Assembly (NCBI GenBank): GCA_043820105.1
Contig: JBDREC010000004.1
Coordinates: 5,682-69,681 of the forward strand
Direction: 5' to 3'
Length of the DNA: 64,000 nt
DNA from: Pseudomonadota bacterium
GTDB lineage: Bacteria; Bdellovibrionota_F; JAHFAK01; JBDREC01
Shown here: piece after piece, positions 22,760 through 46,619 of the stretch
Layout of the letters: every line of letters begins with the position of its first letter
Position numbering within the stretch: position 1 is the first letter of the stretch
Notes under the pieces: generated by a model
Told to the model about the DNA's origin: nothing
Seen by the model: only the letters and a program-made list of their open reading frames with translations
Database searches by the model: none
Translations under genes and position numbers: made by a program

Positions 22760-25159
22760 CTAAATTTGGTCGATTGTTACAAGTCCTTCAAGATCATTTA
22801 TCCAGCCACCATTTATACCCATTGTTATGTTGGCAACAGGTGTTTGATTTCCATTTTCTTGTAGGAAATATGCTAAAGTACCACCTGTGCTAATACTATT
22901 ATCTTCGACATATCTTAAAAGTAATATAGGCGAGTTTTCAAGGTATGATACAACATTTGAGGTACTTCTTTTAAAAGTAATCATTCCATCATAATCGGTT
23001 TTTCCTAATCCAAGACTATACCAAGTTCCATTAAGATTAACCATTACTTGAATACTATGATTGGCTTCTATCTGTTCTCCTTGAGATGTTTGTAAATAAA
23101 AGCTTAAGTTCATTGAGTTGCTATTTTCAAACGCTTGAGCTATTGTTTTTCCTAAATTCAAGGAATCAATAATTCCGGTTTCAATACTGCTTATTAATGA
23201 AGCTTTTGGTATGCTTTGAGATAAATAAGTAAGAATAGTTCCTTCTGCATGGGTAGCTTTATCTTCAGTATGACGAATGGTTAAAATTTTATCAGCTGAT
23301 ATCATATCAATAAAATCGTTTCGATTGACGATGAAAGAAAAGCTTCCACTTACATCAACTGTTCCTGTATTATAATAAGAGTAATTTGATAGAAGTTCAA
23401 ATTCTGTGTTTTCTGTGTGGAAATCTCCATAGGCATCAGTCATTGTAATATTCAAGGTGAATTCAGATGAAACAATATTAACAGCCTCAATAGTTGTTTC
23501 TAAGGAGAGGTCATTTATTGATCCAGCGTTAAGACCAGCAAGCAATACAGCTAAAGACATCGTTTGTCCATTTTGAGCAACTGGAATCATTTCCATAACT
23601 GTTTCATCAACATATGTAGTTGGCTGGTCAATGTATAGAGTTCTTAAATCATTGCCATTGTTTATTAAATTAACCAATTGGGTTCTTATTATTTCAAAGT
23701 AAATTTTACCATCAACATCAGTTGTTTCTGTTGCTAAAATACCCAGATCACCGACACCTGCTATTCTTACTCTCATGTTTGAGCCTTCTTCAATTGGATC
23801 GCCATTTTGATCACTTAATGATAGGCTAATTGAAACATTTTCAGCAATTACAACACAATCATTATCATCATCGTCTATGTCTCCATCACAATCATTATCA
23901 ACAAAATCATCACAAATTTCAGTTGCTCCAGGAAATATAAGTGCATCACTATCATTACAATCATCTGCTAGTAAAAAACCATCAAGATCATTGTCAACAT
24001 CTCCGTTGTTGTTTCCGTCCAAATCATAAAAATATGAAAAAATATTATTGCTAGCCTGTGAAGCATCAGCTGCATATGCAAATGCTCTGTGTTCAATGAT
24101 GGCATCATCAATGCCATCTGGAATTGTGATTGTTAGGTTAGTAAAAACATTGTCCCCTGTTTGAGTTGTAATGTCTTCATCTTCAACAATATAACTTCCC
24201 TGTTGATCATCTGTTAATACATAAGTAATAACTTGAAAACTTACTTCACTAATGTCTTTAATATTATCAGTAATGAGGCTTGAAATCAGATTAAAACTAG
24301 CTGTTACAACTTTGCCTTCTTCTGTAACTTGACTGTTTTGAAAAGCTATTGTGTGATCATCAATTGTTACATCTAATTCTGTATAAATTAATTCTGTTTG
24401 ATAGGTATAATCATTTTCGGCCTCAATTTTTATTACTGTTTCTCCATTTGTGACTATTACGGTATGTGCATATGTGGAGGCTCCTTCCACAAGTTCGAAA
24501 TCATATTGTAAATCTGAGCTTGATTCTTCTCCTGTTGCTATACCATCAACATAATATATTAATGTTGAATTCCAATCATTTGATGGGAATATTATAGCTT
24601 CACCATCTTCCCAGATGTAGGCAGAAAAGGATTGTAAATTATTGTCATTAGCTGAATATGAGTATGCTGTTGTAAAATTACTAGGATCATTTGTGCCTTC
24701 AATACCTTTATAAAAAACAAACTCAGGCCCTTGAGCTGGTGAGGTTTCTGGTACTGTAAACGCTTGGCTGATTTCAAATGATTCGCCATCTAGTTCAACA
24801 GTAGCAATAATGTTTACTTCTGCCAAGGGTTCAAGTTCAAAATTTGCACTACCAATAAACTCTTCACCCACTAGCGAAAGGTCAAAAGATGTTTGCTCTA
24901 CGAGGATATTGCTTTCTAAATCTTCAACATGAATAAGCAGATCACCGATGTCTTGAGCATCATCAATATTTAAGATTTTTACAATAGAATTAACTTCTGT
25001 TAAGGTTTGAACAGCAAGACTTGATTCGTTAGTTTTTTCTGATAAAAAACTATCACCCTTATTTGAACTTGTACATCCAACGAGTCCTATTATAAGGATA
25101 ATAAAAAATAGACTTGAAATGAAATTCAAAAGTGTCCTGTACGTCTTTTCTTTTCTCAT
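22760..25159 (-). CDS. Large lipoprotein with Myxococcus-type Cys-rich 'putative metal-binding motif'
   Basis: Lipobox LVGCTSS. DGFLLADDCNDSDALIFPGATEICDDFVDNDCDGDIDDDDNDC matches the CxDxD...PGAxExCDxxDNDCDG repeat. Confidence 0.6.
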   Translation of the reverse strand: MRKEKTYRTLLNFISSLFFIILIIGLVGCTSSNKGDSFLSEKTNESSLAVQTLTEVNSIVKILNIDDAQDIGDLLIHVEDLESNILVEQTSFDLSLVGEEFIGSANFELEPLAEVNIIATVELDGESFEISQAFTVPETSPAQGPEFVFYKGIEGTNDPSNFTTAYSYSANDNNLQSFSAYIWEDGEAIIFPSNDWNSTLIYYVDGIATGEESSSDLQYDFELVEGASTYAHTVIVTNGETVIKIEAENDYTYQTELIYTELDVTIDDHTIAFQNSQVTEEGKVVTASFNLISSLITDNIKDISEVSFQVITYVLTDDQQGSYIVEDEDITTQTGDNVFTNLTITIPDGIDDAIIEHRAFAYAADASQASNNIFSYFYDLDGNNNGDVDNDLDGFLLADDCNDSDALIFPGATEICDDFVDNDCDGDIDDDDNDCVVIAENVSISLSLSDQNGDPIEEGSNMRVRIAGVGDLGILATETTDVDGKIYFEIIRTQLVNLINNGNDLRTLYIDQPTTYVDETVMEMIPVAQNGQTMSLAVLLAGLNAGSINDLSLETTIEAVNIVSSEFTLNITMTDAYGDFHTENTEFELLSNYSYYNTGTVDVSGSFSFIVNRNDFIDMISADKILTIRHTEDKATHAEGTILTYLSQSIPKASLISSIETGIIDSLNLGKTIAQAFENSNSMNLSFYLQTSQGEQIEANHSIQVMVNLNGTWYSLGLGKTDYDGMITFKRSTSNVVSYLENSPILLLRYVEDNSISTGGTLAYFLQENGNQTPVANITMGINGGWINDLEGLVTIDQI

Positions 25160-29647: not shown

Positions 29648-30145
29648 ATGGATAAAAGAGGATTTAGTCTTGTAGAGTTGATGATAGTAGTTGCTATTAT
29701 TGGGATATTAGCTGCAATCGCAATTCCATCATTTATGAATTACATTAAAAAATCAAAACAATCCGAAATATTAACAATGCTAAATGCAATATATGCTTGC
29801 GAAGCAGACTATAATATTGAGAATCAAAAATTTCACACTACAGGTATAATACCAGCTGGTTCATATAATCCTGCTAATTTAGACGGAAATAGAAAACCTG
29901 GCTCTCAGGTAGAGTTTATGAATGATACAGATGGCTTTGCAATAATTGGTTTTGTGCCTGATCAGGATGTTTTTTCTGCTTTTATTGTCAGTTCAACTGA
30001 TGTAACGACAAGTGCTTTTATTAAAATATATTCAGATTTAGATGATGATGGTACGATTGGACTTCACAGCCAACAAATAAAAAGGGACAAGGATACAGGA
30101 AATGCTTATAAGGTTGTTGAGGCGATTCAAAGTATAGACGATTAG
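29648..30145 (+). CDS. Type IV pilin/pseudopilin-like protein
   Basis: Prepilin leader [27 protein letters not shown] (G-1, F+1, E+5). Single Cys, so no C-terminal disulfide loop. Confidence 0.75.
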
Positions 30146-30420: not shown

Positions 30421-30924
30421 ATGAAACTAAAGCGTAAAGGACTCACCTTATTAGAACTAATGATCGCAGTTGCTATAATTGGCATTATCAGTGCCATAGC
30501 ATCATCATCTTTGATGGGTTTAATCAAAAAATCAAAGAAATCTGAAATAAGCCATATGGTGAATGGTATCTATGTTTGTGAAGCAGATTATAGTATTGAT
30601 TCACAAAAATTCCATATAACATCTGTTGTGCCTGCTGGTTCATTTAATCCAGCAAACCTTGATGGAAATAGGATTCCAGGATCCCAACAAGAGTTCAAAG
30701 AAGACACAGAAGGTTTTGCAATAATAGGATTTGTTCCTGACCAGGATGTTTACTCGGGATTTAAGGTAGATGCTACAGATGTAACAAGTATGGCATATAT
30801 AAAGGTGATGCAAGATCTTGATGATGATGATACTATTGCTGTTTATTCTCAAAGAATAAAAAGAAATAAGGAAACAGGAGATGCATACAAATTTTCCGAC
30901 TTAGTCATAAGCGTTGAAGATTAA
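30421..30924 (+). CDS. Type IV pilin/pseudopilin-like protein, tandem paralog of 29648-30145
   Basis: KGLTLLELMIAVAIIGIISAIA. Shares CEADYxIxxQKFHxT, [13 protein letters not shown] and [13 protein letters not shown] with the upstream paralog. Confidence 0.75.
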   Translation: MKLKRKGLTLLELMIAVAIIGIISAIASSSLMGLIKKSKKSEISHMVNGIYVCEADYSIDSQKFHITSVVPAGSFNPANLDGNRIPGSQQEFKEDTEGFAIIGFVPDQDVYSGFKVDATDVTSMAYIKVMQDLDDDDTIAVYSQRIKRNKETGDAYKFSDLVISVED

Positions 30925-34056: not shown

Positions 34057-34281
34057 AAGATACCCCTTAATTTTAATAAGTTTTTAGCCCTTAACATGTG
34101 TGGCGCAACATGTCAAGAAAAGAGGTGGTCTGCGACATTGGGTTCGCTTTTTAAACAAGATAATGTTTTTAAGCTTATGAAATATAAAGAGTTTGAATTG
34201 TTGTTGAATGGCATATTATTTGCATCTTAATTGACCAACAAAAATTTATTTATGTATATTAAACTTTCTGGGGCGGCAATT

Positions 34282-37200
34282 ATGAACAAAACCTTTGTTT
34301 TGATTTTACTTGCATTATTTCTAAATTCATCCTTTGCTTTTACAAATGAATGTATTGATGTCTTTGGGAACAAGCAAAGACAAGCTGATCAAACCACTTC
34401 CTATGCAGAGAAAAAACAGGAAATACCCAACACTTCTAGGCCTTCACAAAATAGTTCAGAACATTTTGTGTCTTTTGTTTCAATTGGACAAATTCAAATG
34501 TACTCAAAATATGTTGCAGGCTTACATGAAATGCATATTTTATTTCAAAATATGACTGAGCTTGTTTTTCATGTTGAAATGCAAGGAGGCCGAGATAAAA
34601 GAAAACTAGTTGTAGCAAATAATGCACACGCATATATTAAGGATTTAGTAAGTGGACAAATTATTAGTGAGGTAAGTGCTGCGAATATTGAAAATAGCGC
34701 GACTTCCATTTACTTTAATCACAGGAATCAAAACCTGTTTCAACTTTCTTTCTCTTTTCATGAAAGAGAAGAACATGATGCAAGACCACCAAGAATAAGT
34801 TTAAACAATAATCAAAATAGTGAAATAAATTATCCAACATTATATCAACATATAAATACATTGGGTCAAGCAAATGGGTCAAGTTTTGGTGATGTGAAAA
34901 TATTAGATATTGAATTTTTAAGAGATAAAAGAAATAGGACTAGGCAATCTTATGTGTGTGAGTATAGGCTTTTGCTTTCAAATGGTGATACAATTGTATT
35001 TAAAGTAGACACTGGTCATCATGGTAAAGGTAATTATACTACAGCTGGGCTTGATGCATATTTGCATCGTTTCGCAGATGGAAATATTATTAAATTAATT
35101 CTAAGTGGATCTGGCAATTTGATTCCAGGTAAAATTAGAATCAATGGACAAGGCTATGATATTCATTTAACTATAGGCTCTCATGAGCAAGAAGTTGTTA
35201 AGGCCCACCCTGATATTGAGACATCTATTATTAGAGAAGCACCATCTCGCCCTAGAAAAAACATTGAAGATTTAAAAAGCCTCGAAAATACAATTCCTCC
35301 AGACAAAAGGTTAATCGAAAAAAAAGCTTTGGCAACTCAAACCTTAACAATTGAAGATGATACTGAAGCCGAATCTAAGGGCTTTGATTCTTTATTATCA
35401 GATTATCCTATTGTGTCTCGAGGAATTTATCCAGATGCAACATCAGCTGATACAATTACATCCTTGGGAAAGATAAGGGGCTCAATAACCTCAAGAACCA
35501 CTAAGTTTACAAGCTTAGTGGCACGTCAACTTTTTAGTGCTGCAAATATTCCAGATAAAGTTGCAATTACTTTAATTGTTGATGTGCATGGAAGTAAGAA
35601 GCATGAGGTGGTGATTAAGACAGAAGAAGGTTGCAATGAACTGATAATCAGAGAGTTTTCTTATTTGCAGCCAATTAAGGATAATGGTCAAATTGTGGGA
35701 TTTAGAAGGATTAGAAAAGAAAATATTATTGCAACATTTGTTAAAAGAGAAGATCATTGGTCTATAATCATTGAAGACATTGAGTTGCGATCTTTTAAGG
35801 CTGAATTTTCAAGGCAAAGCCAAGCAGTTTTTGGCTTTGTTATAGTTTCAAGAAATGAGAATGCACTTAATGCCTCTGAAAAACAAGGATTAAGAAAAAA
35901 TTTTCAAGAAAGACTTAGGCGTTTTGGATATAAAAAGGAAATTGATAAAGAAGAGAAAAAATCGATTCAAAAAAAAGCTCCCAAAGAAGCCATTGAAAAT
36001 GAAATTCGACTGGTTCAAGATACTCTTCAGATTACCTTAGATCAAGGTGCTAAAGAACAAGGTCACCAAGACGAAGGAGAGGCAAAAAGACAAGAAACCT
36101 CAAAAGAGGAAGAAAGAGAAGTTTTACAAGCCGAAGATTCAAGTGAATTTGAGAACCTATCAAGTGAATCAGTGAATAGTGATATGCAAGCAGGCTTTCC
36201 GGAAAACAAAATATTAACCGCTGATCCAGAAGATTGGCTTTTGGGGAGAGCCATATTAAATGCTAAACCTGATCAGTCAATTCCTGTAACCTTGAAATAT
36301 AGATCTGAAACTACAAATGCTGATGTGGTTTTTGTTACATTGAATGTAACGGCTGTAAACCAAAGAGATGTTGGTGATCGCCTTGTGCTTGAAGAAGGTA
36401 TAGTTGAAGTTTTTTATAATGATGAGTTAATAGAAGCAGAAGTGCTTAACCTTTCAGGTTCAAAAGTAATTGGTCTTTATTATTTACACTTAATCAAGGC
36501 CAATAGATATTATCCAATTCTATTTGCAAACTGGGGAAGCAGTGCAGATAATCAAGAATTTTTCATTTCCACCAAGCATGATGGATATCGAGACTTAGTT
36601 ACTATGTTAAATGATAGAATATTATATCCATCGGATATTCTAAAAATTTTTACTGATAGTTTAGAGCATAGAAGATTATTGGCGTATAGATATTTTCAAA
36701 GTTATGGTGGGCCTTTTATGTATTTATATGAATATGATGTTAAAGATATGTCTGGTTTAGATTTTTTAGGTGGAAGTGATTTTCTTGGTTTTAGATTCCC
36801 AAATGGTGAAATAATAGAAGCTAAAGTAAAAAAAGAAGATGCTTCAGGTTTTGCTTTTGATATTAAATATCAAAGTGGCTCACATAATTATTTTGATGTT
36901 GAATTAAGAATAAAGCCAAAAGATTCCAATTCCTTTTATTACATTACACACACATGTTTAGCTTATAGATTTTCACATTATGAAGTTCTAGCCTTATCTT
37001 TATTAAATGTTGCCTTTATAATAAATAAAAATACTGGCGAAATGCATCTTTTACCCTTAAAGCCACCAGGCAAAAAACCTCTTTATAAATCTTCTTCCTT
37101 TAGAGGGTTTCTAAGAAAATTGCCAAAAGCACTTGCAAGTTATGAAATTGATGAATCAGAGTTTGAACACCTTAATAATGGTTCATCAAAAGAAAATAAC

Positions 37201-38757
37201 TCTAGAAAAGAGCCTTCACAGGTTCAGGTAGATGTAGTGGAAGAAAATATACCTTCTTCTTCAATAGCTTCTGAACCAATGGAGGGTACTGGAATAATTG
37301 CAAGACTAGGAAGAATGTTAAGAAAAATTAATATTCCCAAAAAGTTTTCAAAGAAAAAAGATGCCCCTGATGAAGAAAGGCAAGGATCATCTGAAGAAGA
37401 AACTGATGAACAAAGAGAAAATAGATTTGTTAATGTAGCCAGAGTTTTTGATTCTGGTGCTACCACTGAGGATATTGTTGGATCAGGAGAAAGCTTAATT
37501 AATGATACTCTTGAACTATGCAAAAGGGCAAGGCTTGCTGATGTTTCCATCGCTGATCAAATCGATATTAAAAGGCCCTTGGAAATAGATTTTGAAAAGA
37601 TAAATTTTGAAACATTCGCAGCCCTTATGGATAAAGGATATGTTCATCTAGAACAGGACTATTTTCATTTTGAAACTATGATGATGGCAGATTTAAACAA
37701 AGAACTTATTATAAATAGTAGAATAACAATTGGCCCTTTAGAATTATTTTTAACAGGATACATTGATAAAGCTAGTTCAAAAATTAAGTGGGATGATATG
37801 CTAACACAGGGTTCTTTTAAAGGAAATTCTGTTGTTGTTACAACATTACCTGGCTGGGAAAAGACTTTTCCTTTATTGGTAATTGATCCAAGGTCTTTGA
37901 CTAGATTAGATCTTTATTTGACTGTAACACAAGATGGCTTAGTTGTGTATTCTGCAAGAAAATATGTTAGATATGGAAAAAAAGCTCAGCCAGATTATGG
38001 TTTAGACGATCCCAGGAAAATGCTAAGTGATCTGGAAATAAACAAGGACATTGGTATGCTTTTTTCAAACACAAATGTAGAGGGAATGGATTTTATTTTT
38101 TCTGAAGTTGCTCAGACAAATCAACTTTCGACTGGTGAAACTTTTGCACAAGAAGGATATCAGGGCTTTGTAATTAAACCAGGTACTGCTATAAGATTTC
38201 CTTTGCTATATAAGCGAAATAAATGGGTTTTTGATCAAGAGAATTTCCATGTTAGTTTTCTTGGATCTTTTGGTGTCCATTATCTTACAGGAACAAATAA
38301 TGTTCATTTAAGAAGATATGGAAATATTGAAGTTGTAAGGATTCCGAGTCTTAGTATTGCAGTAATTCTTGATCCAAAGACATCTTATTTGCACCCTGTA
38401 CCACTGAGCTATGTTGATATTAAAGCAAAAAAACGAAATAAACGAATTGAGCAGTATCTTGCAGATAATCAAGATAGGATTATTCCCTGGCCAGAGCTTG
38501 GCGAACTTGATGTAACATTATTTTTAAGATTAAAAGTTATAGATATTGTAGATAACATGCAAATACCGGCTAATGAAAGTGAAGCTTTTTGGGCTGGTTA
38601 TGAAAAGCTATTGACACCTCCAATTAACTTTTCAAAGGAAGAATTTATTGCTGCCATGACTAGGATTATTGATTGTGCGGATGCCAACGGTAGGGCTGAA
38701 TTTGAAGAAGTGAGACAAGTTCTTGAAGAAGTTTTGCTAAGACTGGGTTTAATTTAA
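34282..38757 (+). CDS. Giant secreted protein (about 1490 aa) with no recognised domains
   Basis: Signal peptide MNKTFVLILLALFLNSSFAF. Long charged linker (KEEEREVLQAEDSSEFEN). The track start at 34231 is TTG; ATG 34282 is chosen. Confidence 0.55.
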   Translation: MNKTFVLILLALFLNSSFAFTNECIDVFGNKQRQADQTTSYAEKKQEIPNTSRPSQNSSEHFVSFVSIGQIQMYSKYVAGLHEMHILFQNMTELVFHVEMQGGRDKRKLVVANNAHAYIKDLVSGQIISEVSAANIENSATSIYFNHRNQNLFQLSFSFHEREEHDARPPRISLNNNQNSEINYPTLYQHINTLGQANGSSFGDVKILDIEFLRDKRNRTRQSYVCEYRLLLSNGDTIVFKVDTGHHGKGNYTTAGLDAYLHRFADGNIIKLILSGSGNLIPGKIRINGQGYDIHLTIGSHEQEVVKAHPDIETSIIREAPSRPRKNIEDLKSLENTIPPDKRLIEKKALATQTLTIEDDTEAESKGFDSLLSDYPIVSRGIYPDATSADTITSLGKIRGSITSRTTKFTSLVARQLFSAANIPDKVAITLIVDVHGSKKHEVVIKTEEGCNELIIREFSYLQPIKDNGQIVGFRRIRKENIIATFVKREDHWSIIIEDIELRSFKAEFSRQSQAVFGFVIVSRNENALNASEKQGLRKNFQERLRRFGYKKEIDKEEKKSIQKKAPKEAIENEIRLVQDTLQITLDQGAKEQGHQDEGEAKRQETSKEEEREVLQAEDSSEFENLSSESVNSDMQAGFPENKILTADPEDWLLGRAILNAKPDQSIPVTLKYRSETTNADVVFVTLNVTAVNQRDVGDRLVLEEGIVEVFYNDELIEAEVLNLSGSKVIGLYYLHLIKANRYYPILFANWGSSADNQEFFISTKHDGYRDLVTMLNDRILYPSDILKIFTDSLEHRRLLAYRYFQSYGGPFMYLYEYDVKDMSGLDFLGGSDFLGFRFPNGEIIEAKVKKEDASGFAFDIKYQSGSHNYFDVELRIKPKDSNSFYYITHTCLAYRFSHYEVLALSLLNVAFIINKNTGEMHLLPLKPPGKKPLYKSSSFRGFLRKLPKALASYEIDESEFEHLNNGSSKENNSRKEPSQVQVDVVEENIPSSSIASEPMEGTGIIARLGRMLRKINIPKKFSKKKDAPDEERQGSSEEETDEQRENRFVNVARVFDSGATTEDIVGSGESLINDTLELCKRARLADVSIADQIDIKRPLEIDFEKINFETFAALMDKGYVHLEQDYFHFETMMMADLNKELIINSRITIGPLELFLTGYIDKASSKIKWDDMLTQGSFKGNSVVVTTLPGWEKTFPLLVIDPRSLTRLDLYLTVTQDGLVVYSARKYVRYGKKAQPDYGLDDPRKMLSDLEINKDIGMLFSNTNVEGMDFIFSEVAQTNQLSTGETFAQEGYQGFVIKPGTAIRFPLLYKRNKWVFDQENFHVSFLGSFGVHYLTGTNNVHLRRYGNIEVVRIPSLSIAVILDPKTSYLHPVPLSYVDIKAKKRNKRIEQYLADNQDRIIPWPELGELDVTLFLRLKVIDIVDNMQIPANESEAFWAGYEKLLTPPINFSKEEFIAAMTRIIDCADANGRAEFEEVRQVLEEVLLRLGLI

Positions 38758-38835: not shown

Positions 38836-39978
38836 ATGGATAATTTTCCTTGGGAACTTATCAATCCATATTGTGATGAAGTTGATGAAAAAAATATTGG
38901 TGTTTTTTTTAAAGATCCCAAGTTCTTGGAACTTAATACAACAGTTTTAAATGCAATTTATTATAGGATAAGAAAAAATCCCGATTTAACTAAATTACCT
39001 CAAAACATTGTTTCAGAATTATCTCAGATTTATCATCGAAATTTAGCTAGAAATACATTGTTAAGACAAAACCTTTTAGATATTTTAGGTCAATTTAATG
39101 CTAATGGACTGCAATGCATAGTTTTAAAGGGCGGGATTTCCCTTTTTCAATCAATTTATCCAACAAACGCAATTAGATATATGGGAGATATTGATTTATT
39201 AGTAGATTCAAATGATTTTGAAAAGGCTAAATCGCTTTTAAATAAGAATAATTATTTTTTAAAAGATGATGGCTCTTTTTATAATGATGATACCATTTTA
39301 TTTATAGACCTACACTCTTCAAAAAACAGACAATATAAAAATAAAAAAATCGATATTGACCAATTTATTAAGAAAGCACAGGTGATAAGTGTTGATGGTG
39401 TAGATGTTCGAATTCCATCTCATATAGACCAGTTATGGTATTATTTTTACCATTCCTTTTATAGGCATTCTTATCTTGCTGAACCTGATAATCCAGAAGT
39501 TTTGCTCGAGTTGATATCATATATTAAGTCTTATGAGGGTTTGATTGATTTTAATGAACTTATTCAAAGGGCTTTTCATAGTAAGTGTGAACTCGTTTTT
39601 GCTATTGTTGTTTATCTGCTTGATGAAAGGTTTTCTACCTCACTTTTAGATGATCGTCTTCATGATCCAAATCTTGCCCTTTTTTTATCTTGGATAAAAT
39701 ATTCAAAACAAATAAATAAGAAATATCACTATGCTCTTAGTAGATATAATCAAATAAATATTACACGACCTGGTTTGTTTAGAAAGTTCGTTCAAACCAT
39801 AAAGGTTTTAATAATTACTCCTGTGTTATTTGAAAAAAAAGAATTTATTCTCAGTTTTTATAAGGTTAAGAATTCAAGATTATTGCCATTGTTAAAAACT
39901 ATCCATATATTTAGACTTTTTTTTCTAAATTGTTTTATTTGGTTTAAATGGATAATTTTTTATTTGAAAAAACATTAA
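38836..39978 (+). CDS. PF14907-type 'uncharacterised nucleotidyltransferase' family protein
   Basis: LKGGISLFQSIYPTNAIRYMGDIDLLVDSNDFEKA matches the LKG...R.MGDIDLLV core of the family seen beside HprK-like kinases in lasso-peptide loci. Confidence 0.6.
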   Translation: MDNFPWELINPYCDEVDEKNIGVFFKDPKFLELNTTVLNAIYYRIRKNPDLTKLPQNIVSELSQIYHRNLARNTLLRQNLLDILGQFNANGLQCIVLKGGISLFQSIYPTNAIRYMGDIDLLVDSNDFEKAKSLLNKNNYFLKDDGSFYNDDTILFIDLHSSKNRQYKNKKIDIDQFIKKAQVISVDGVDVRIPSHIDQLWYYFYHSFYRHSYLAEPDNPEVLLELISYIKSYEGLIDFNELIQRAFHSKCELVFAIVVYLLDERFSTSLLDDRLHDPNLALFLSWIKYSKQINKKYHYALSRYNQINITRPGLFRKFVQTIKVLIITPVLFEKKEFILSFYKVKNSRLLPLLKTIHIFRLFFLNCFIWFKWIIFYLKKH

Positions 39979-39997
39979 GAATAAAAAGGATGAAATA

Positions 39998-40288
39998 ATG
40001 AGTATAAATCCAGAAACCATTATAATAAAAAATAAAAATCTTTTAGATCGTGATGTCAAAGATGGCAGTGTGCTGTATGATATAAAAAAAGGGAATGTGC
40101 ATGTTCTAAATAGTTATGCTTCCTTTGTTTGGTTATCTATGGAAGATGAATGTGTTTTTCAGGATTTAGTAAACTCAGTAAAGCAAGAGTTATCAGATTC
40201 TCAAATTGATCATAATGAGAAAATTTCTGAGCTTATTAAAAAATTTATTTATGATGGATTAATTGAGATTAAAAATAGTGAGTCTTGA
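39998..40288 (+). CDS. PqqD-family protein (RiPP recognition element-like)
   Basis: VHVLNSYASFVWLSMEDECVFQDLVNSVKQEL...ISELIKKFIYDGLIE fits the PqqD pattern hxLNxxxxxIWxxxDGxxTxxEIxxxLxxxY...DVxxFLxxLxxxGLI. AAGGA RBS. Confidence 0.7.
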   Translation: MSINPETIIIKNKNLLDRDVKDGSVLYDIKKGNVHVLNSYASFVWLSMEDECVFQDLVNSVKQELSDSQIDHNEKISELIKKFIYDGLIEIKNSES

Positions 40289-41106
40289 TGATTTTATATT
40301 ATAATGTAAATGCTATAAGTTTTTCAATTCAAGCTAATAAAAAATTAGCAATTTTAATTAAACAACAAATATATCCTTCAGCAATTATTTCTGAAAAAAC
40401 TATTGAAACTGAAATTAATTATTTAGTAAAAAACTCAAATGGATATTTTGAGATTTATGAAAATAAGTTGAGACTTTATAAATGCAAAAGACTTGAATAT
40501 TTAGTTTCAAAGTTGGAATGGTATATTACTGGCAAAATTTTGAGAGAACTAAATGGTTTTTTGCAAATACATGCAGCCGGAATTGTCAAAAATAATAAGG
40601 CAACCCTTGTTATTGGTGATCATGGAATTGGCAAGACTATTATTTTAACCTATTTTTTATTAAAAGGTTATCGTTGCTTATCAGATGATATTATTTTGCT
40701 TAACCCAAAAGATTTAAGCGCTCATTGTTTTGCACGTGGATTTAAAATTAATAAAGATACTTATAGAATATTGCCAAAACTAAAACAGGAGTTTTTGGAA
40801 AAAACAATAAATAAGAATTGGGATTTTCGTATTAATGCAAAAGATATTAGAAAAAATGCATTTACAAAAAAAGCAAAGATTGAAAAAATTATTTTTGTCA
40901 AAAAAAACCATGAAAAAAAGCAAATAATTTATAAAATAGGTCAATCCGAAGCTTTTATAGATTTACTATTAAATTCTTTGAATTATAAGGAACATGAAAA
41001 ATATGGAATTAATATATTGGCGGATTTGATAGATAATAGCCAAGCGTATTGTCTTAAACGAGTTGGGTTTTTATCAATGATAAAGCAGATTGAAGCTATC
41101 TTATAA
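40288..41106 (+). CDS. HPr kinase/phosphorylase C-domain-like kinase (HprK-related)
   Basis: LQIHAAGIVKNNKATLVIGDHGIGKTIILTYFLLKGYRCLSDDIILL parallels the HprK P-loop region GxSGxGKSxxALxLxxRGHxLVxDD. Its start overlaps the PqqD stop (TGATG). Confidence 0.65.
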   Translation: MILYYNVNAISFSIQANKKLAILIKQQIYPSAIISEKTIETEINYLVKNSNGYFEIYENKLRLYKCKRLEYLVSKLEWYITGKILRELNGFLQIHAAGIVKNNKATLVIGDHGIGKTIILTYFLLKGYRCLSDDIILLNPKDLSAHCFARGFKINKDTYRILPKLKQEFLEKTINKNWDFRINAKDIRKNAFTKKAKIEKIIFVKKNHEKKQIIYKIGQSEAFIDLLLNSLNYKEHEKYGINILADLIDNSQAYCLKRVGFLSMIKQIEAIL

Positions 41107-41122
41107 TAAAAGGATAATTTTT

Positions 41123-42058
41123 ATGATACCATATTACATTCGTATGCTAAATGATGAAAATAGAATTAATCATTTCAAAAAAGCTATTTTTGAATGTGTT
41201 AAAGAAGGTGATGTTGTAGTAGAGATTGGTTCAGGTTTAGGAACTTATTCCTTTTTTGCTGCTTTAGCAGGCGCTTCAAAAGTATATGCTATTGAAGAAA
41301 CAGCTATTATTGAAGATTCAAAAAGTTTGGCCATGGAAAATGGGCTTATTGATAAAATTGAATTTATTAAAGCTGATTCTACTAAGGTTTCTTTACCTGA
41401 AAAAGCAGATGTTTTGATATTTGAAGACTTTAGTGCATCTTTTATTACTTCGCGCTGCAATAAAATTATAGTTGATGCAAAGGCTCGATTATTAAAAGAA
41501 AATGCTAAAATATTGCCATTTTGCTCTGAACTTTACCTTTCTTTACTAAAATCTGAAAAAATATATAAAGAACTTTCTTTAAAAAATGAGGGTGATTTGT
41601 ATGGTTTAGATTTTTCTTCTCTTTTTAAAAAGGGAATGAATAATTGGTATGTTGAAAAACTTGAAAGTAAAGATATTCTTTCAGAATCAAAATTGCTAAG
41701 AAGCTTTGATTTCTATATTGATAATGATTTTTCCTTTAATGAGGACTTAAGTTTTCAGCTTGAAAGTTGTGAAATATTTGGAATAACTTCATGGTTTGAT
41801 TTGAAAATTACAGACCAAGTATTTTTGTCAAACTATCCAAGCTCTTTACCAACTGTTTGGGGGCAGGCAATTTTTCCATTTGAAAAACCTGTTAAAATAA
41901 ATGAAAGCCAAAAAATCACTCTTTCTATGTGTAATCAGCAAAATGTTGAAATGACTGAACAATATTTTTCCTGGTCTCTAAAGGTAGGTGATGTATGTTA
42001 TAATGGCTCTACTTTTAAGGGTTTTTCCTTGGATGTTGAAAGTCTTGTAATGAAATGA
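41123..42058 (+). CDS. Protein arginine N-methyltransferase (PRMT)-like class I SAM methyltransferase
   Basis: YYIRMLNDENRINHFKKAI (compare PRMT HEEMLKDxVRTxxY), motif I VVEIGSGLGTY, post-I AALAGASKVYAIE, ADVLIFEDF (compare VDIIISEWMGY). ATG 41123 with AAGGA RBS. Confidence 0.6.
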   Translation: MIPYYIRMLNDENRINHFKKAIFECVKEGDVVVEIGSGLGTYSFFAALAGASKVYAIEETAIIEDSKSLAMENGLIDKIEFIKADSTKVSLPEKADVLIFEDFSASFITSRCNKIIVDAKARLLKENAKILPFCSELYLSLLKSEKIYKELSLKNEGDLYGLDFSSLFKKGMNNWYVEKLESKDILSESKLLRSFDFYIDNDFSFNEDLSFQLESCEIFGITSWFDLKITDQVFLSNYPSSLPTVWGQAIFPFEKPVKINESQKITLSMCNQQNVEMTEQYFSWSLKVGDVCYNGSTFKGFSLDVESLVMK

Positions 42059-42106
42059 AACAGACCCTGTCCTCGGCGCAAGCCGCTGATATTAAAGGCT
42101 AAAATT

Positions 42107-42135
42107 GGCTTGCAACATTGCTAAACATTTGCTAT
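42107..42135 (+). promoter_or_regulatory. Near-consensus sigma70 promoter upstream of the small Tat-signal peptide gene
   Basis: TTGCAA, 17-nt spacer, TATAAT. Confidence 0.5.
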
Positions 42136-42183
42136 AATATTAATTCAAATGGGAGAGTTTAACTATCGACATTATGGGTTACA

Positions 42184-42375
42184 ATGAAAAATAATAGACT
42201 TAATCTTGAAGACAATAAAAAACCTAAGAATGAATCCAGAAGAGAATTTCTTAAAAAAGCAATTTTGGCTACAGCTATTGCAACACCAATGGTGCAAACT
42301 TTTAAAATAAAAGAACTAAGAGCTGATCCGCCTTCCTGGAGTATGGGAATGGGTGGTAATCCAATGGGCATGTAG
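42184..42375 (+). CDS. Small 63-aa protein with twin-arginine (Tat) signal and Met/Gly-rich C-terminus
   Basis: SRREFLKKAILATAIATP matches S/T-R-R-x-F-L-K followed by a hydrophobic region. The C-terminus is PPSWSMGMGGNPMGM. Confidence 0.5.
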   Translation: MKNNRLNLEDNKKPKNESRREFLKKAILATAIATPMVQTFKIKELRADPPSWSMGMGGNPMGM

Positions 42376-42388
42376 TTTTGTAGTTTTT

Positions 42389-44251
42389 TTATGATATTGG
42401 GTCACTTTTGTCTTCAGAAATATCAACAATCATTACTCTTTCTTTTATTCCTGAAAGGTAAACAACTTCATATCCTATAAAAAGTTCATCTTCTGAATAT
42501 TTCGGTAATAGATTTCCAAGTTCATTTGTGTCAATTGTATAAATACTCAGGGCTTGTATTTGATTGAGCATGCCTTTTACATTTTTTCCAAAAATTAGAC
42601 CCGCTACTTTTGCAAGCACTGTGGGTTTAACTTCAGATCTATATAGATTTGCTCTAACTGAATCTCCATTTAATGCAACATATGCTTCAAGCTTTTTTTG
42701 TTTTGTTGATTTTTGTATGAGCCTTCCTATTCCCGCATTTTTCGAAAGATCTTGATAGCCTTGAGCAAAATCACCTATAAAACTAAATAATTGGAGCGAG
42801 TTTTCTGCAACATATTGAACAACTTCAAAAATTTCAGGATCATCATAAGTGGCTTCACTGAGGTTTCTATCATAAGCTGCTAAAATATTTTTTTTCATCA
42901 TGTCATAATAAAGCCAAACTGGTGTTGATTTATATTCGTCTTCATAGAGTAGTTGAAGCCAAATAGTTTCACTGTCTTCTTTTACAAGAATATCTAATAG
43001 TCCAATTTTAACATTTGTAAGTCTTTTAAGACCATAACTTTTACTCACTGATGCTGGGACTTCAGTTGTTAAAGATAAAACTATGTTTGGAGTTTCTTTT
43101 TGATTTGAGTTAAAATATGAAAAATCTGGACTAGCCTCTTTTTCGAACAAGCCAACACTTGCAAACAATGCTTTAACTTGTGTTTTCAGTGTGTTAATGC
43201 TGTCATCATCTCCAGGAAGAACATTGTCAATTGTATTTAAGTAAACTTTAGCAACTGTAAAAGCAGAAGCATATGGATAATTCATTAACTCATCTGTTGC
43301 CGCCAAAACTAATCTATCAGCCAATTCTTTGTTTGGGCCTAATGCTTTTCTTAATTGCCATAACACATATCCAAATACTTCACCTAGATCGTGGACTTCC
43401 ATGTTGGACTGATATGCTACTTTCTTTTCTGCATTTCTTATTGGATCTGATCCACCAAAAACAAGACCAATCATTGGGCTTTCAAGAGTCATCATTGCCA
43501 TGTAGTCAGCAAAGGCTTCGTTATAGCCGCCATCAACTTCTGCATTAAATAAAACACGATCACCTAGTATTTGATCAAATATAAAGTGTCCTGTTTCATG
43601 TATTATAACACTTGGATCATATCCAGCTGAAACAAGACGTTCTTTTGATAATATTTTCGTTAAAAAGCTATTTTTTGCAGGAAGAAAGCTTAAGGTCATA
43701 TCTTCTGAATTAAAAAAAGCATTGTTTTCGCTTCTTATATTAGTGATAGGATCATTGACTTCTCTGTCAACATAGACTTGGAGCTTTTCATTAGTAGTAA
43801 AATCAAGACTTTCAAGTTTTTTAAGGAAGGTGTTAATCCAATAGTAAACAGTGCATTGCCTTATTATGCTGCCATTTTTATCTCTTGCTTCATCTTTTTC
43901 CCAAAACATCTTATCTGATACTGTATCAACTGCTACAAAAAAATTTCCTTTTTCTCTTAAAGGAACTAGATTTTGCTCTTCATCGCAATCATTATTACAT
44001 AAAATAATGTTATCATTTTGAAAAAAAACATCTTGGTATGGATTGCTAAATGCCTGACTAGGAGAAGTTGTTTCAACAAAGCGAAGCAAAGCTGCTGGCA
44101 CTTGATTTTCACCTAAGTCTCGCCACAATTCTTTTGCTTGCGCTGATTTGTAGTTCATTACAACAGGTAAATATGTTTTTGGAAAAATTGAAGAATAGAA
44201 AAATATGCTTAGGAAACTAAGTACTATTATAAGGTTATATCTTTGTTTCAT
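42389..44251 (-). CDS. Secreted thermolysin-like (gluzincin) zinc metalloprotease
   Basis: Signal peptide. HETGHFIFD (HExxH) followed by GGYNEAFADYMA (the NEAxAD third-ligand motif of the M4-like clan). Confidence 0.65.
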   Translation of the reverse strand: MKQRYNLIIVLSFLSIFFYSSIFPKTYLPVVMNYKSAQAKELWRDLGENQVPAALLRFVETTSPSQAFSNPYQDVFFQNDNIILCNNDCDEEQNLVPLREKGNFFVAVDTVSDKMFWEKDEARDKNGSIIRQCTVYYWINTFLKKLESLDFTTNEKLQVYVDREVNDPITNIRSENNAFFNSEDMTLSFLPAKNSFLTKILSKERLVSAGYDPSVIIHETGHFIFDQILGDRVLFNAEVDGGYNEAFADYMAMMTLESPMIGLVFGGSDPIRNAEKKVAYQSNMEVHDLGEVFGYVLWQLRKALGPNKELADRLVLAATDELMNYPYASAFTVAKVYLNTIDNVLPGDDDSINTLKTQVKALFASVGLFEKEASPDFSYFNSNQKETPNIVLSLTTEVPASVSKSYGLKRLTNVKIGLLDILVKEDSETIWLQLLYEDEYKSTPVWLYYDMMKKNILAAYDRNLSEATYDDPEIFEVVQYVAENSLQLFSFIGDFAQGYQDLSKNAGIGRLIQKSTKQKKLEAYVALNGDSVRANLYRSEVKPTVLAKVAGLIFGKNVKGMLNQIQALSIYTIDTNELGNLLPKYSEDELFIGYEVVYLSGIKERVMIVDISEDKSDPIS

Positions 44252-44426: not shown

Positions 44427-46619
44427 CTAATTGGATTCTGCGTATTGAAATATTAGGGAAATAATATCAGGAGATGTATTGGGGTTATCAATAAGGCATA
44501 CTATGGGAAGATTAACTTTATATTCTTCAGTTTGATATGGTATTGCTGTTGTTACATTGACAATTGGAGTATCAAGAGAAATGCTTGTGCCAATGGAATC
44601 ATACAATTGGCTTCCGCTTGATATGGTAAGGGGTTTTGTAATTACTGATCTTTCACTTCCATTTGAAATGTCAACAGTGTATGTTGCAACTTTAAAAGCC
44701 GAATCAAGCCAGATGTTATTAAAAGTATTGGCACTGTCAACTTCTATAACCTCAACTGTTCTTTCTATTTTTGTTGGAATATCAAGATTATTGCTTTGAT
44801 TTAATATTGCTGCTTTCAGTATTTTTTTGCCATTGTTTTCTACTACATAAGAAGCTATTATTACCTTTGCTTCTTTAGCATGGTATAATCTTGGTGGATT
44901 GACCATTTCACTATCATCGAGGCTTATTTCTTCGATACCAACAGTATTCATTTCAGTGTCATTTTCTAAGGACATGACAGTAATTGTATTTCCATGAATC
45001 ATATATAATCTTTTTTTGCTTAAAGCAAAGTCAATTTCATTAAGACTTGTAATGTTGCTGGCAAGTTGTATTGGTTCCTTAAATTCTAATTTTACACCAT
45101 CTTCAATTTGAATTAGACTAATTGGAAATGCTAAGGCAGTTTGTTCTGTTGAGCTGAGAACTACAATATAGCCATAGTTAAGATTTTCTTGGCATAGGAT
45201 TTTTATCTCTTTGCTAAAAGAAGTTGATCCTTTTGTGACAGTATGTTCATTGCTGATATTACCTTCTCCTACTTTCAGGAGATTAAAAATATGTTTAGTG
45301 TTAGTTGCCTCAGCTGATATAAAATAAGTTGAGGTTTGATACTTAATTGCATCTGATAAAAATATTTTATCATCTGATGTTATGTTTTGAGAACTGCTTT
45401 CTGTGTCTTCAATACTTAAAGTTGTGATTACTTCAGGTTGTTGCTCTTTATATTTATTTAATAATATGTATTTTGTTGCAAAGAGTCCATTCGGCTTTTC
45501 TTCTTTGGCAGCAATAAAATATGAGTTAGGGTGTAAATACTTTATTTTAGGAGAAAAAGCCAAGCTTGATAAATCAGTTAATTCATATATTGTGCTTTTA
45601 TTAGTTTCAAATACGGGAATAGATTCGATATTTGTAGTTGTTGTGATTAATACATTATCTATTACCATAAATATAGAAAGTCGAAGTCTTGAAAAGTTAT
45701 TTTCACTGTTTGTTGAAAGGCTAATATTTGCAATTATATCCATTGTGCTATCAGCATAACTTTCTTTTTCCAGGCTTACTGAAATTTCAGAGCAGGTTCC
45801 ATATATACATTCATAATTAAAGTATATATGGTCAGTTGAGGCCACGCCATCTAATAGAGTCTTTGATAATGAATCATTTTCTGCTAAGTAAAGGTTGTGA
45901 TAAATCATAGCTTCTTTTTCATAAGAACTTACAGCTGTTTCATTTGAGAGTGAATACTCAAAATCAGCGTCAGCTGTTGATACATTAAGGTCTCCAAGGT
46001 CAATGTCACTTGAGCCATCTGATAAGGCGTCTGAAAGCTTGAAAATATCATTTAATGTTGCAATTCTTTCTTCATAATATTCTCCATCTGCATCAAGCAT
46101 TGGAAGATAAACAGAAACAAAGTGATATTCTTCGTCTTCGTCTAATGCAACTGAAAAATAACCACTTGAATTTAAAACCGCGTTAGGACTTGACTCATCT
46201 AATGTCAGGGTTTCAGTGATATCGCTGTTAAGTGAATGTACCTTAATAATCAGTGCTAGATTATCACTTGTTATTTCACTGCATTTTAATGCAGTGCTTT
46301 TGGGTGCTTTGGTAATATCAGATCTGGTAATAATATCTGTGCCTGTATCTTCATTTGAGTCTGTTCTTGTAATTATTCCCATATCATAAAGATCAGTTCT
46401 TGTGATTATTGTATTATCAGCAGATAGAGTGCCCAGGTCGTTATTATTGATAAGTTCTATTGTTTCTTCTAGATCTATGGTTCCGCTTATTGAGTAATCA
46501 GCAGAAGTGTTTGGGGTGTTTCCATTGTTTTCTTCTGAAGAAGTGAAAATTGTACAAGAATTGATAGAGATTGAGATTATGATTAAAATTAAGCTTTTTG
46601 TAAGTTGAATCTTGCTCAA
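44427..46619 (-). CDS. Large lipoprotein of unknown function, ISRND/TRTD-motif family
   Basis: Lipobox ISINSC. IITRTDLYDMGIITRTDSNEDTGTDIITRSDI near the N-terminus. Confidence 0.6.
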   Translation of the reverse strand: MSKIQLTKSLILIIISISINSCTIFTSSEENNGNTPNTSADYSISGTIDLEETIELINNNDLGTLSADNTIITRTDLYDMGIITRTDSNEDTGTDIITRSDITKAPKSTALKCSEITSDNLALIIKVHSLNSDITETLTLDESSPNAVLNSSGYFSVALDEDEEYHFVSVYLPMLDADGEYYEERIATLNDIFKLSDALSDGSSDIDLGDLNVSTADADFEYSLSNETAVSSYEKEAMIYHNLYLAENDSLSKTLLDGVASTDHIYFNYECIYGTCSEISVSLEKESYADSTMDIIANISLSTNSENNFSRLRLSIFMVIDNVLITTTTNIESIPVFETNKSTIYELTDLSSLAFSPKIKYLHPNSYFIAAKEEKPNGLFATKYILLNKYKEQQPEVITTLSIEDTESSSQNITSDDKIFLSDAIKYQTSTYFISAEATNTKHIFNLLKVGEGNISNEHTVTKGSTSFSKEIKILCQENLNYGYIVVLSSTEQTALAFPISLIQIEDGVKLEFKEPIQLASNITSLNEIDFALSKKRLYMIHGNTITVMSLENDTEMNTVGIEEISLDDSEMVNPPRLYHAKEAKVIIASYVVENNGKKILKAAILNQSNNLDIPTKIERTVEVIEVDSANTFNNIWLDSAFKVATYTVDISNGSERSVITKPLTISSGSQLYDSIGTSISLDTPIVNVTTAIPYQTEEYKVNLPIVCLIDNPNTSPDIISLIFQYAESN

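Follow-up and report, generated by a model that had tools for sequence, protein, structure and literature searches.

The DNA analysed here, a stretch of 64,000 nucleotides referred to as the window, belongs to a 157,935-bp contig of a metagenome-assembled genome (MAG) labelled 'Pseudomonadota bacterium' (locus tags ABIA04_00755 and ABIA04_00760), and carries on its plus strand four enzyme genes followed by the gene of a 63-residue peptide. On balance, we favour reading these five genes as an operon for a peptide that is made on ribosomes and modified after translation (RiPP), a cyclase-less relative of the phosphorylating branch of lasso peptide pathways and a counterpart, outside Bacillota, of the linear polyphosphorylated peptides (LPPs) described there (Popov et al., Nat Commun 2026, PMC13381572). 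The reading is built on the folds of the enzymes, the joint travel of the five genes, the pairing of a conserved leader with a variable core in the peptide family, and the absence of a cyclase, protease or exporter gene among the scanned open reading frames (ORFs) of the window, which were those of at least 100 aa between 11.3 kb and 63.3 kb.

A probable five-gene peptide-modification operon

The four enzyme genes are tightly packed and real, as had been proposed in a preceding reading made without database searches (the sequence-only reading), and the families to which that reading assigned them hold under profile and structure comparison. The features of the operon are as follows.

38836-39978, plus strand: PF14907 nucleotidyltransferase (NTase), 380 aa (PF14907 E 3.3e-35, 122 bits against a cutoff of 31)
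39998-40288, plus strand: discrete PqqD-type RiPP recognition element (RRE), 96 aa (PF05402, 24.5 bits against a cutoff of 23.4)
40288-41106, plus strand: P-loop kinase of the HprK/phosphoenolpyruvate carboxykinase (PEPCK) fold, 272 aa from ATG 40288, listed among the ORFs from TTG 40285 (TIGR04352, profile comparison with the PDB, AlphaFold2 model)
41123-42058, plus strand: S-adenosylmethionine (SAM) methyltransferase (MTase) of the type I protein arginine methyltransferase (PRMT) fold, 311 aa (PRMT_C PF22528 E 1.7e-13, AlphaFold2 model)
42184-42375, plus strand: precursor peptide gene, 63 aa, predicted leader MKNNRLNLEDNKKPKNESRREFLKKAILATAIATPMVQTFKIKELRA followed by predicted core DPPSWSMGMGGNPMGM (family profile, co-occurrence)
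42235-42255, plus strand: twin-arginine motif S18-R-R-E-F-L-K24 (25-sequence alignment)
42277-42288, plus strand: I32-A-T-P35, equivalent of the (Y/W)xxP motif, inside the hydrophobic (h-) region of the leader (25-sequence alignment)
42325-42372, plus strand: predicted core D48-M63, past a signal-peptidase-type L-R-A site (predicted cleavage)

The translational coupling claimed in the sequence-only reading holds in part. The NTase and PqqD genes are separated by 19 nt (39978/39998), and the PqqD and kinase genes share a true TGATG overlap (PqqD stop 40286-40288, kinase ATG 40288). The supposed overlap of the kinase and MTase genes is instead a 16-nt gap between the kinase stop (41104-41106) and the MTase ATG (41123), which has AAAGGA 9 nt upstream; an overlap would require the MTase to start at TTG 41090. 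The GC content of the region (38836-42375) is 27.9%, against 32-34% in the flanks and 32.4% in the whole window, which is compatible with horizontal acquisition.

Among the scanned ORFs there was no Asn-synthase-like cyclase, no transglutaminase-like B2 protease (Transglut_core3), no S24/S26 peptidase and no ATP-binding cassette (ABC) transporter or MsbA-like exporter, in agreement with the earlier description of an RRE-guided enzyme set devoid of cyclase, protease and exporter. An S24/S26 peptidase was also not found in the Pfam-annotated flanks of four related loci (L003, L006, L008, L012).

Conservation and linkage of the five genes

An exhaustive search of 1.84 billion representatives returned 1145 relatives of the kinase at E ≤ 1e-3. 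A word-index search returned 126 relatives of the MTase (26-54% identical where aligned, and about 30-40% for most full-length ones), only the query itself and one weak match for the kinase (P0002, E 6e-4), and only the query itself for the NTase. Hidden Markov models (HMMs) for the five gene families were run on every six-frame ORF of every fetched locus; for the kinase a 10-sequence subset was used, the 40-sequence alignment being too diverse. A kinase-anchored set, which is independent of the precursor, comprised 12 species-representative genome loci, eight from Nitrospirota (including Thermodesulfovibrionales and Ca. Sulfobium) and one each from Ca. Scalindua, Spirochaetota, Nitrospinota and Acidobacteriaceae. 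An MTase-anchored set comprised 80 metagenome loci. Loci with a precursor of the window's type, called Tat-type below for its twin-arginine translocation (Tat) motif, number 27 across everything fetched, with duplicates and the window included.

Small ORFs beside the cassettes have an N-terminal region in common with the 63-residue ORF of the window and C-termini that are unrelated. With the precursor HMM, 25 non-redundant small ORFs were identified; each lies no farther than 618 bp from a cassette gene, all but two of them less than 200 bp away, and the HMM had no match away from cassettes among 8577 ORFs in 889 kb. In the kinase-anchored set the precursor family was present at nine of 12 loci, mostly within 35 bp of the kinase gene and at the farthest 458 bp from it, and a tenth locus had a truncated copy. 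The co-varying small ORF for which the sequence-only reading had suggested a neighbourhood search exists, and co-occurrence shows that the ORF at 42184-42375 belongs to the system, presumably as its substrate. Of the two substrates nominated in that reading, the 63-residue peptide is thus retained, and the giant protein encoded upstream, which has no homologue beside any other cassette, is not.

In the kinase-anchored set, PqqD is encoded directly 5′ of the kinase at 10 loci, the two genes being 158 bp apart in L023 and 307 bp apart in L016, and five of the 12 loci have an NTase. Among the 13 closest metagenome homologues of the MTase, 11 have a kinase gene within 300 bp, and all four that are flanked by at least 1.5 kb on both sides are accompanied by kinase, PqqD, NTase and precursor. 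NTase homologues adjoin the cassette in L003, L006, L008, L012, L013, L015, L016, L019, L021 and L025-L034. Gene order was compared on the contigs that encode six of the MTase relatives from the word-index search. The window's order is repeated in two soil contigs and a JGI contig (L006, L007, L012; small ORF - NTase - PqqD - kinase - MTase), and permuted orders are found in KSB1-type contigs (L003-L005; PqqD - kinase - MTase - NTase), in L008 and L009 (PqqD - kinase - MTase - small ORF - NTase) and in a 3.7-kb contig (L002; small ORF - PqqD - kinase - MTase); one more distant MTase stands alone (L010). The cassette is therefore syntenic in unrelated genomes, and its recurrence in KSB1, soil, sediment and other metagenome contigs is more than chance. 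In one KSB1-type contig a 220-aa ORF resembling a transposase family lies between the PqqD and kinase genes (L004:704-1366); the near-identical L003 has an ORF of the same length in the same place (1524-2186), uncalled, and a kinase ORF that is called shorter. Genes neighbouring the cassette at 20 Tat-type loci show an enrichment in families for sugar nucleotides and polysaccharides (DegT, five; Epimerase, five; Polysacc_synt_2, four; Bac_transf, three; GT1, three), unlike the surroundings of the cassette in the window.

Distant MTase homologues, of about 30% identity, lie in lasso peptide clusters (L041, L043, L053, L056, L060, L063, L080-L082, L087-L092 and L094). These clusters encode an Asn-synthase-like cyclase, a kinase of the HprK type, PqqD and an NTase, together with small ORFs of a second family (e.g., L056:2571-2696 and L060:4818-4988) with the classical lasso leader (K)KxYxxPxLxxYGxxxxLT, and Asn_synthase accounts for 12 of 64 neighbouring proteins, alongside Transglut_core3 and ABC transporters. 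With a cyclase HMM built from 12 lasso-type loci and a regular expression for the lasso leader, the 80 MTase-anchored loci were found to include 23 of lasso type and 10 with a Tat-type precursor; no locus was both. In flanks reaching up to 8 kb, no cyclase homologue and no lasso-type leader turned up at any of the 27 Tat-type loci. Since the two types split cleanly, the PRMT-fold enzyme recurs as a companion of HprK-like kinases both in lasso clusters and in a cyclase-less system with a Tat-type leader.

The precursor family

Precursors begin with an n-region of variable length, followed by the consensus [R/K]-R-x-F-[L/I]-[K/R], in which R20 and F22 (window numbering) are invariant and K24 is nearly so across the 25 sequences. 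A proline follows exactly 10 residues after RRxFLK in 24 of them and 13 residues after it in L023, and the position three residues before this proline is occupied by tyrosine in 22, by isoleucine in the window and L002, and by cysteine in L026. The leader continues as a moderately hydrophobic stretch and closes with a small-x-small site, which reads AWA in the Nitrospirota group and ARA, WA or LRA elsewhere. In the window, SRREFLK is followed by a 15-residue uncharged stretch and the L-R-A site, so that cleavage would be expected after L45-R-A47. Curated models of Tat signals match the family weakly (TIGR01409 in eight of the 25 sequences, TIGR02811 in five, PF10518 in three), and no curated NCBIfam model for the family itself was found.

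Beyond this site the tails are hypervariable, with a high share of Gly (17%), Pro, Trp, Met, Cys and His. The predicted core of the window, DPPSWSMGMGGNPMGM, has four Met, four Gly and three Pro, contains no Arg or Lys, and has S51 and S53 as its only hydroxyl residues, which makes these two the candidate acceptors for a kinase. Other tails are rich in SPM and MM (L036), read GHGHKHTPHGWW (L003), CPGVGNCG...HSM (six loci) or KPTGPPKKKK (three loci), or, in Nitrospirota, C...FxEKxF...CW and DGFFDQ..RFFxNLFHS. The precursor of L002 (L002:106-393), the closest relative of the window's cassette, ends in YMGYMEYMG and then twelve SMG repeats. One member of the precursor alignment matches the NCBIfam model 'His-Xaa-Ser repeat protein HxsA4' (E 5.5e-8). 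A conserved phospho-acceptor was sought and rejected: a hydroxyl residue among the first five of the core is common, but would be so by chance in about 60% of cases.

The recognition element and the modifying enzymes

The PqqD-type protein of the window falls inside PF05402, and its best NCBIfam matches, ScmD and lasso_PqqD_Bac, are below cutoff. A profile of its family (A6) compared with the PDB is nearest to the lasso RREs TfuB1 (2.4e-7) and TbiB1 (7e-7), then to PqqD, and then to two 2026 entries (9x8z and 9x90) named 'PqqD family protein' and 'lasso peptide biosynthesis PqqD family chaperone'. In lasso and LPP leaders it is the (Y/W)xxP motif that the RRE binds (PMC13381572), and a conserved Asp of the family aligns with the Asp by which LppB and TfuB1 hold the leader Tyr. 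Covariation of this RRE Asp with the leader Tyr/Ile is not clean (L003) and is confounded by relatedness.

The kinase lies within the HprK/PEPCK fold, though its match to Pfam Hpr_kinase_C is just 13.5 bits. The profile of 40 relatives has the HPr(Ser) kinases as its top PDB matches (3tqf, 1knx, 1ko7, 1jb1), and the AlphaFold2 model, with a predicted local distance difference test (pLDDT) score of 93.9, matches ATP-dependent PEP carboxykinases over its full length (TMq 0.6-0.66), while its nucleotide-binding half aligns with the C-terminal domain of HprK/P. HprK/P and PEPCK are related enzymes. Numbered from TTG 40285, the kinase has the P-loop GDHGIGKT at 111-118, His96 and LSDD at 132-135; H96, G116 and K117 are invariant in the 40-relative alignment, with little variation at the LSDD, FPR and N233 positions. 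The best NCBIfam match is TIGR04352, HprK_rel_A (E 3.6e-19, 68.9 bits against an equivalog cutoff of 200), and FomB also matched. TIGR04352 is the top curated family for all eight cassette kinases tested, at 30-136 bits: the seven related Tat-type kinases score 85-136 bits (full-length in the best) and the lasso-type one 30 bits, all below 200. In paeninodin-type lasso precursors HprK-like kinases phosphorylate the C-terminal Ser (PMC8498205), and in LPP precursors a Ser (PMC13381572). One 415-aa kinase homologue (P0150) carries a C-terminal precursor-like peptide, SRRSFLGRAAKIAYTAPVIVTL...ALAQ, followed by a Cys-rich tail; this could be a natural kinase-precursor fusion or a read-through of gene calling.

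The NTase has a GDID metal-binding and catalytic motif at residues 117-120, and the D-x-D motif is kept in 27 of 27 cassette NTases. It corresponds to the essential D134/D136 pair of PsmN, a PF14907-like NTP transferase required for the addition of one or two hexoses to the phospho-Ser of a lasso peptide (PMC6993621); by their descriptions, LppN and PsmN resemble the window's enzyme. AMP-type nucleotidylation, as assumed in the sequence-only reading, is thus not the best guess, since the sole studied relative is required for hexose addition to phospho-Ser. A literature search for PF14907 returned only an unrelated paper on phosphonate biosynthesis. The enzyme ends (39840-39978) in a hydrophobic or amphipathic tail of about 30 residues, LLPLLKTIHIFRLFFLNCFIWFKWIIFYLKKH, and likewise in L003, L013 and L016, which suggests that the modification machinery may be membrane-associated.

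The MTase has a complete type I PRMT fold, with an N-terminal YY helix, a Rossmann domain and a C-terminal β-barrel/oligomerization subdomain. A profile of its clade matches PRMT8, PRMT6, PRMT3, CARM1 and PRMT1 at E of about 1e-52, and the AlphaFold2 model (pLDDT 90.1) superimposes on PRMT1 with a template modelling (TM) score of 0.86. The query began at 41114, three residues upstream, and positions in the clade alignment (A3) are therefore the real number plus three. The SAM-binding motifs are kept, and the double-E loop has its first Glu without exception (FED). In place of the second Glu, most of the clade has Arg and the window has Ser, and the THW loop reads (S/T)VW across the clade (TVW in the window), with its His replaced by Val. 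Because of these replacements, and because the window core contains no Arg or Lys, arginine N-methylation by this enzyme is doubtful. About a third of cassette-type MTase homologues (among them P0005, P0008, P0009, P0040, P0044 and P0075) carry an extra C-terminal segment of about 65 residues, which the window's MTase does not have and whose pattern, ..L..L.G..S...IA..L...FP......A...V, resembles a PqqD/winged-helix RRE. The segment matched nothing in Pfam, and the PqqD HMM matched it in P0075 only, weakly (E 2e-4).

Proposed pathway and alternatives

In the pathway that we favour, the 63-residue product of 42184-42375 would be the substrate, and its residues 1 to about 47 would act both as a twin-arginine signal peptide and, through (Y/I)xxP, as an RRE-binding leader. 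By analogy with lasso B1 proteins and LppB, PqqD would bind (Y/I)xxP and present the Gly/Met-rich tail to the enzymes. The kinase, judged from PadeK, PsmK and LppK, would phosphorylate S51 or S53, close to where the core begins, and possibly do so more than once; the PF14907 enzyme, judged from PsmN, would add a sugar-type group to the phosphate; and the PRMT-fold enzyme would methylate an acceptor, probably other than a canonical substrate arginine. A site on or close to the phospho group would be as likely as any residue, because the enzyme also serves lasso precursors that have no RR motif and the kinase is its one constant partner. These steps need ATP, SAM and nucleotide sugars, and so would be cytoplasmic. 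Tat would afterwards export the decorated peptide and general signal peptidase I would remove its leader, a route that would account for the absence of an encoded protease or exporter. A periplasmic metal-binding role for the cores rich in Met, His, Cys and Gly is a speculation.

A bolder version, which we hold only tentatively and as less probable, is that the operon represents an undescribed RiPP class in which a genuine Tat signal has been co-opted as RRE leader. PqqD would then be both recruiter and Tat 'proofreading' chaperone, retaining the peptide in the cytoplasm until the kinase, the transferase that decorates the phospho group and the MTase have acted. The Tat route would be used because Tat carries bulky, charged, pre-modified cargo; the exported peptides, rich in Met, His, Cys and Gly, would possibly be copper ligands; and the MTase would use a non-arginine acceptor, e.g., the phosphate or the group added to it, a chemistry that would be new to the PRMT fold. 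In the searchable literature no natural RiPP whose leader is a Tat signal was found, and it yielded just engineered or irrelevant cases.

Several observations weigh against the favoured pathway or parts of it. On the side of the leader, the window peptide carries Ile at the position of the usual Tyr, scores 12.7 bits against the 16.7-bit cutoff of TIGR01409, and has no match to PF10518 (Pfam TAT_signal). The mean Kyte-Doolittle hydropathy of the h-regions is moderate (0.05-1.5), and Lys or Arg interrupts them in the Nitrospirota members. No tat genes lie next to any locus, and a regular expression for TatA-like proteins matched nothing by the loci or in the window. Genes for Tat components are usually unlinked to their substrates, so this absence is uninformative. 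On the side of the core, no Ser, Thr or Tyr is conserved across all precursors. As to the enzymes, the kinase and PqqD both score under the NCBIfam equivalog cutoffs (for PqqD and TIGR04353, 14.2 bits against 35), and the window's PqqD has Glu/Lys where most relatives have the conserved Asp; the pairing of leader and RRE is likewise uneven, with Ile alongside Glu/Lys in the window and L002, but Tyr alongside Glu in L003. The NTase is missing from several well-flanked loci (L017, L018, L022) and the MTase from all 12 kinase-anchored genome loci, and both are therefore regarded as accessories. The NTP transferase of an LPP pathway was inactive in a heterologous host (PMC13381572).

The same weak Tat scores would be expected if the leader were a Tat look-alike, in which RRxFLK...(Y/I)xxP serves purely for recognition and the peptide stays in the cytoplasm or relies on an unlinked protease and exporter. 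The moderate, in many members charged h-regions and the lack of tat genes nearby fit this view, and the signal of bufferins is dispensable for their modification, so that signal and leader roles are separable (PMC11626156). We nevertheless consider a look-alike unlikely: S-R-R-x-F-L-K is a nearly perfect Tat consensus with R20 and F22 invariant, the small-x-small site lies at a fixed distance as in real signal peptides, and general export is the simplest explanation for the absence of a protease and exporter at every locus. The invariant R20 also invites the idea that the MTase is a real arginine methyltransferase acting on the leader, where methylation of the second Arg of RR would gate Tat export until modification is complete. 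In its favour are the full type I fold, the strong PRMT homology, and the fact that R20 is the sole invariant Arg of the precursors while the window core has no Arg or Lys. It is improbable, given that the guanidinium-binding second Glu and the THW His are replaced across the clade, that homologous MTases serve lasso clusters whose leaders have no RR motif, and that Tat-type loci without an MTase keep the same motif.

Two further readings remove the peptide, or the operon, from the pathway proposed here. The enzymes could act on another target, for instance a surface glycan, a lipid-linked intermediate or the giant protein encoded upstream, with the small ORF an unrelated Tat-exported protein. 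Related cassettes are often found in polysaccharide loci, and the kinase resembles FomB, a small-molecule kinase. The large proteins encoded around the window's cassette, however, are not repeated beside other cassettes, besides enzyme genes only the small ORF accompanies the kinase across phyla, the substrate implied by a discrete RRE is a peptide, and there is an apparent kinase-precursor fusion (P0150); this reading is very improbable. Least probable of all is that the cassette is the tailoring half of an ordinary lasso pathway with its cyclase, B2 protease and exporter elsewhere in the genome. Kinase, NTase and RRE are indeed typical accessories of paeninodin-type clusters, and distant MTase homologues lie in true lasso clusters. 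Against this stand the clean record of the 27 Tat-type loci (none with a cyclase homologue or lasso leader in up to 8 kb of flank), the distinct leader family (RRxFLK, no YxxPxLxxxGxxxxxT), a core with no Asp or Glu at positions 7-9 for ring closure, and the absence of anything lasso-like from the window ORFs scanned (11.3-63.3 kb).

If the favoured pathway holds, linear phosphorylated peptides would extend from Bacillota to diderm and uncultured lineages, and general Tat export with signal-peptidase processing would replace a dedicated protease and exporter. The Met-, His- and Cys-rich cores could form a family of exported metal-binding peptides. With a defined peptide substrate, a binding motif and two candidate Ser residues, the chemistry of the PF14907 transferase and of the altered-site PRMT-fold enzyme is directly testable.

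Genomic setting of the operon

The 125-nt gap 5′ of the precursor gene contains a sigma-70-like promoter match, which is suggestive:

42110-42138, plus strand: TTGCAA-17-TG-TATAAT

The scan that produced it gave 24 matches overall against 22.6 expected from shuffled sequence, i.e., not above chance, and no terminator was found in the promoter and terminator scan. Upstream of the NTase gene lies that of the giant 1508-aa protein (34231-38757, plus strand), which has an N-terminal signal-like segment and no Pfam or NCBIfam match. Downstream, and convergent with the precursor gene from 13 nt past its stop, is the gene of a 620-aa secreted protein (42389-44251, minus strand) with an HETGH zinc-protease motif and a weak match to M36 (fungalysin). 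This protease is probably unrelated to the cassette, though it is an extracytoplasmic protease adjoining an exported-type peptide, because it is not conserved beside other cassettes. A 730-aa ORF (44427-46619, minus strand) follows, with no family match. The giant protein, the M36-like protease and the 730-aa protein were considered as members of the system and rejected, none having a homologue beside any other cassette. Farther away, 14 kb from the Met-rich precursor, a 799-aa protein (22760-25159, minus strand) carries the MopE-type putative copper-binding motif PF11617 (E 2.8e-10). Two further genes in tandem (29648-30145 and 30421-30924, plus strand) specify proteins of 165 and 167 aa, whose N-terminal methylation motifs are like those of type IV pilins (PF07963).

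Relation to known systems

The link to lasso accessory enzymes drawn in the sequence-only reading is borne out: paeninodin and pseudomycoidin clusters share with the cassette all three families, namely the HprK-like kinase, an NTP transferase apparently of PF14907 type and the PqqD/B1 RRE. Lasso clusters differ in having a cyclase, a B2 protease, an ABC exporter and a lasso-type precursor, and their known kinases target a C-terminal Ser, whereas the window core ends in Met. No YxxPxLxxxGxxxxxT leader was detected by regular expression at the Tat-type loci. A 2022 review of lasso modifications covers carboxyl-O-methyltransferases and PIMT-type methyltransferases and no PRMT-like enzyme (PMC9266682), so PRMT-fold enzymes as recurrent tailoring partners in kinase-containing lasso clusters are an addition to that account. 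The window MTase resembles eukaryotic type I PRMTs (PRMT1/3/6/8, CARM1) in fold and SAM motifs and departs from them in its replaced second Glu and THW His, in being bacterial, and in its place in a peptide-modification operon.

A curated neighbourhood of an HprK-related kinase and PqqD, which the sequence-only reading mentioned, does exist as the NCBIfam HPr-rel-A system (TIGR04352, HprK-related kinase A, and TIGR04353, PqqD family peptide chaperone). It has the same kinase/PqqD pairing, and the window's pair is a relative below both cutoffs. Kinases and Tat go unmentioned in two RRE-survey papers. Bufferins, which are periplasmic copper ligands (PMC11626156), set a precedent for RiPPs that leave by general export; they are alike in carrying a general-secretion signal on the precursor and cores rich in metal-binding residues. 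They differ in using Sec rather than Tat, with a signal peptide dispensable for modification, and in their unrelated MNIO/DUF2063 enzymes; in the cassette the RRE motif lies inside the signal.

The closest known counterparts are the LPPs of Bacillota, whose clusters (LppA/K/B/S/D/N) combine an RRE, an HprK-like kinase and an NTP transferase to give a linear product, with polyphosphorylation of core Ser3 by the kinase; the clusters are often found in capsule loci, the family is reported as restricted to Bacillota, and its description makes no mention of Tat, methyltransferases or Gram-negative hosts (PMC13381572). Both systems have an RRE and an HprK-like kinase, have no macrolactam cyclase, and often lie near polysaccharide loci. 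The LPP leader is cut at a signal-peptidase-I-type site and the cassette precursor has its predicted small-x-small site; the LPP clusters encode a SipW-like archaeal-type signal peptidase I (LppS) and an MsbA-like exporter, neither of which occurs among the scanned window ORFs. The cassette differs further in its twin-arginine leader and its added PRMT-fold MTase. Its leader, RRxFLK-x7-(Y/I)xxP, has only (Y/I)xxP and the variable tail in common with the LPP precursor, YxxPxVLxHQxIxFETxxS (PMC13381572), and its hosts include Nitrospirota, Planctomycetota, KSB1 and a 'Pseudomonadota' MAG. The earlier statement that the cassette matches no characterized RiPP class is thus half true, since the LPP family was described in May 2026 (PMC13381572) and the cassette differs from it in peptidase, exporter and leader. 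As judged from its genes, the system would be best filed with the lasso-derived linear phosphopeptides.

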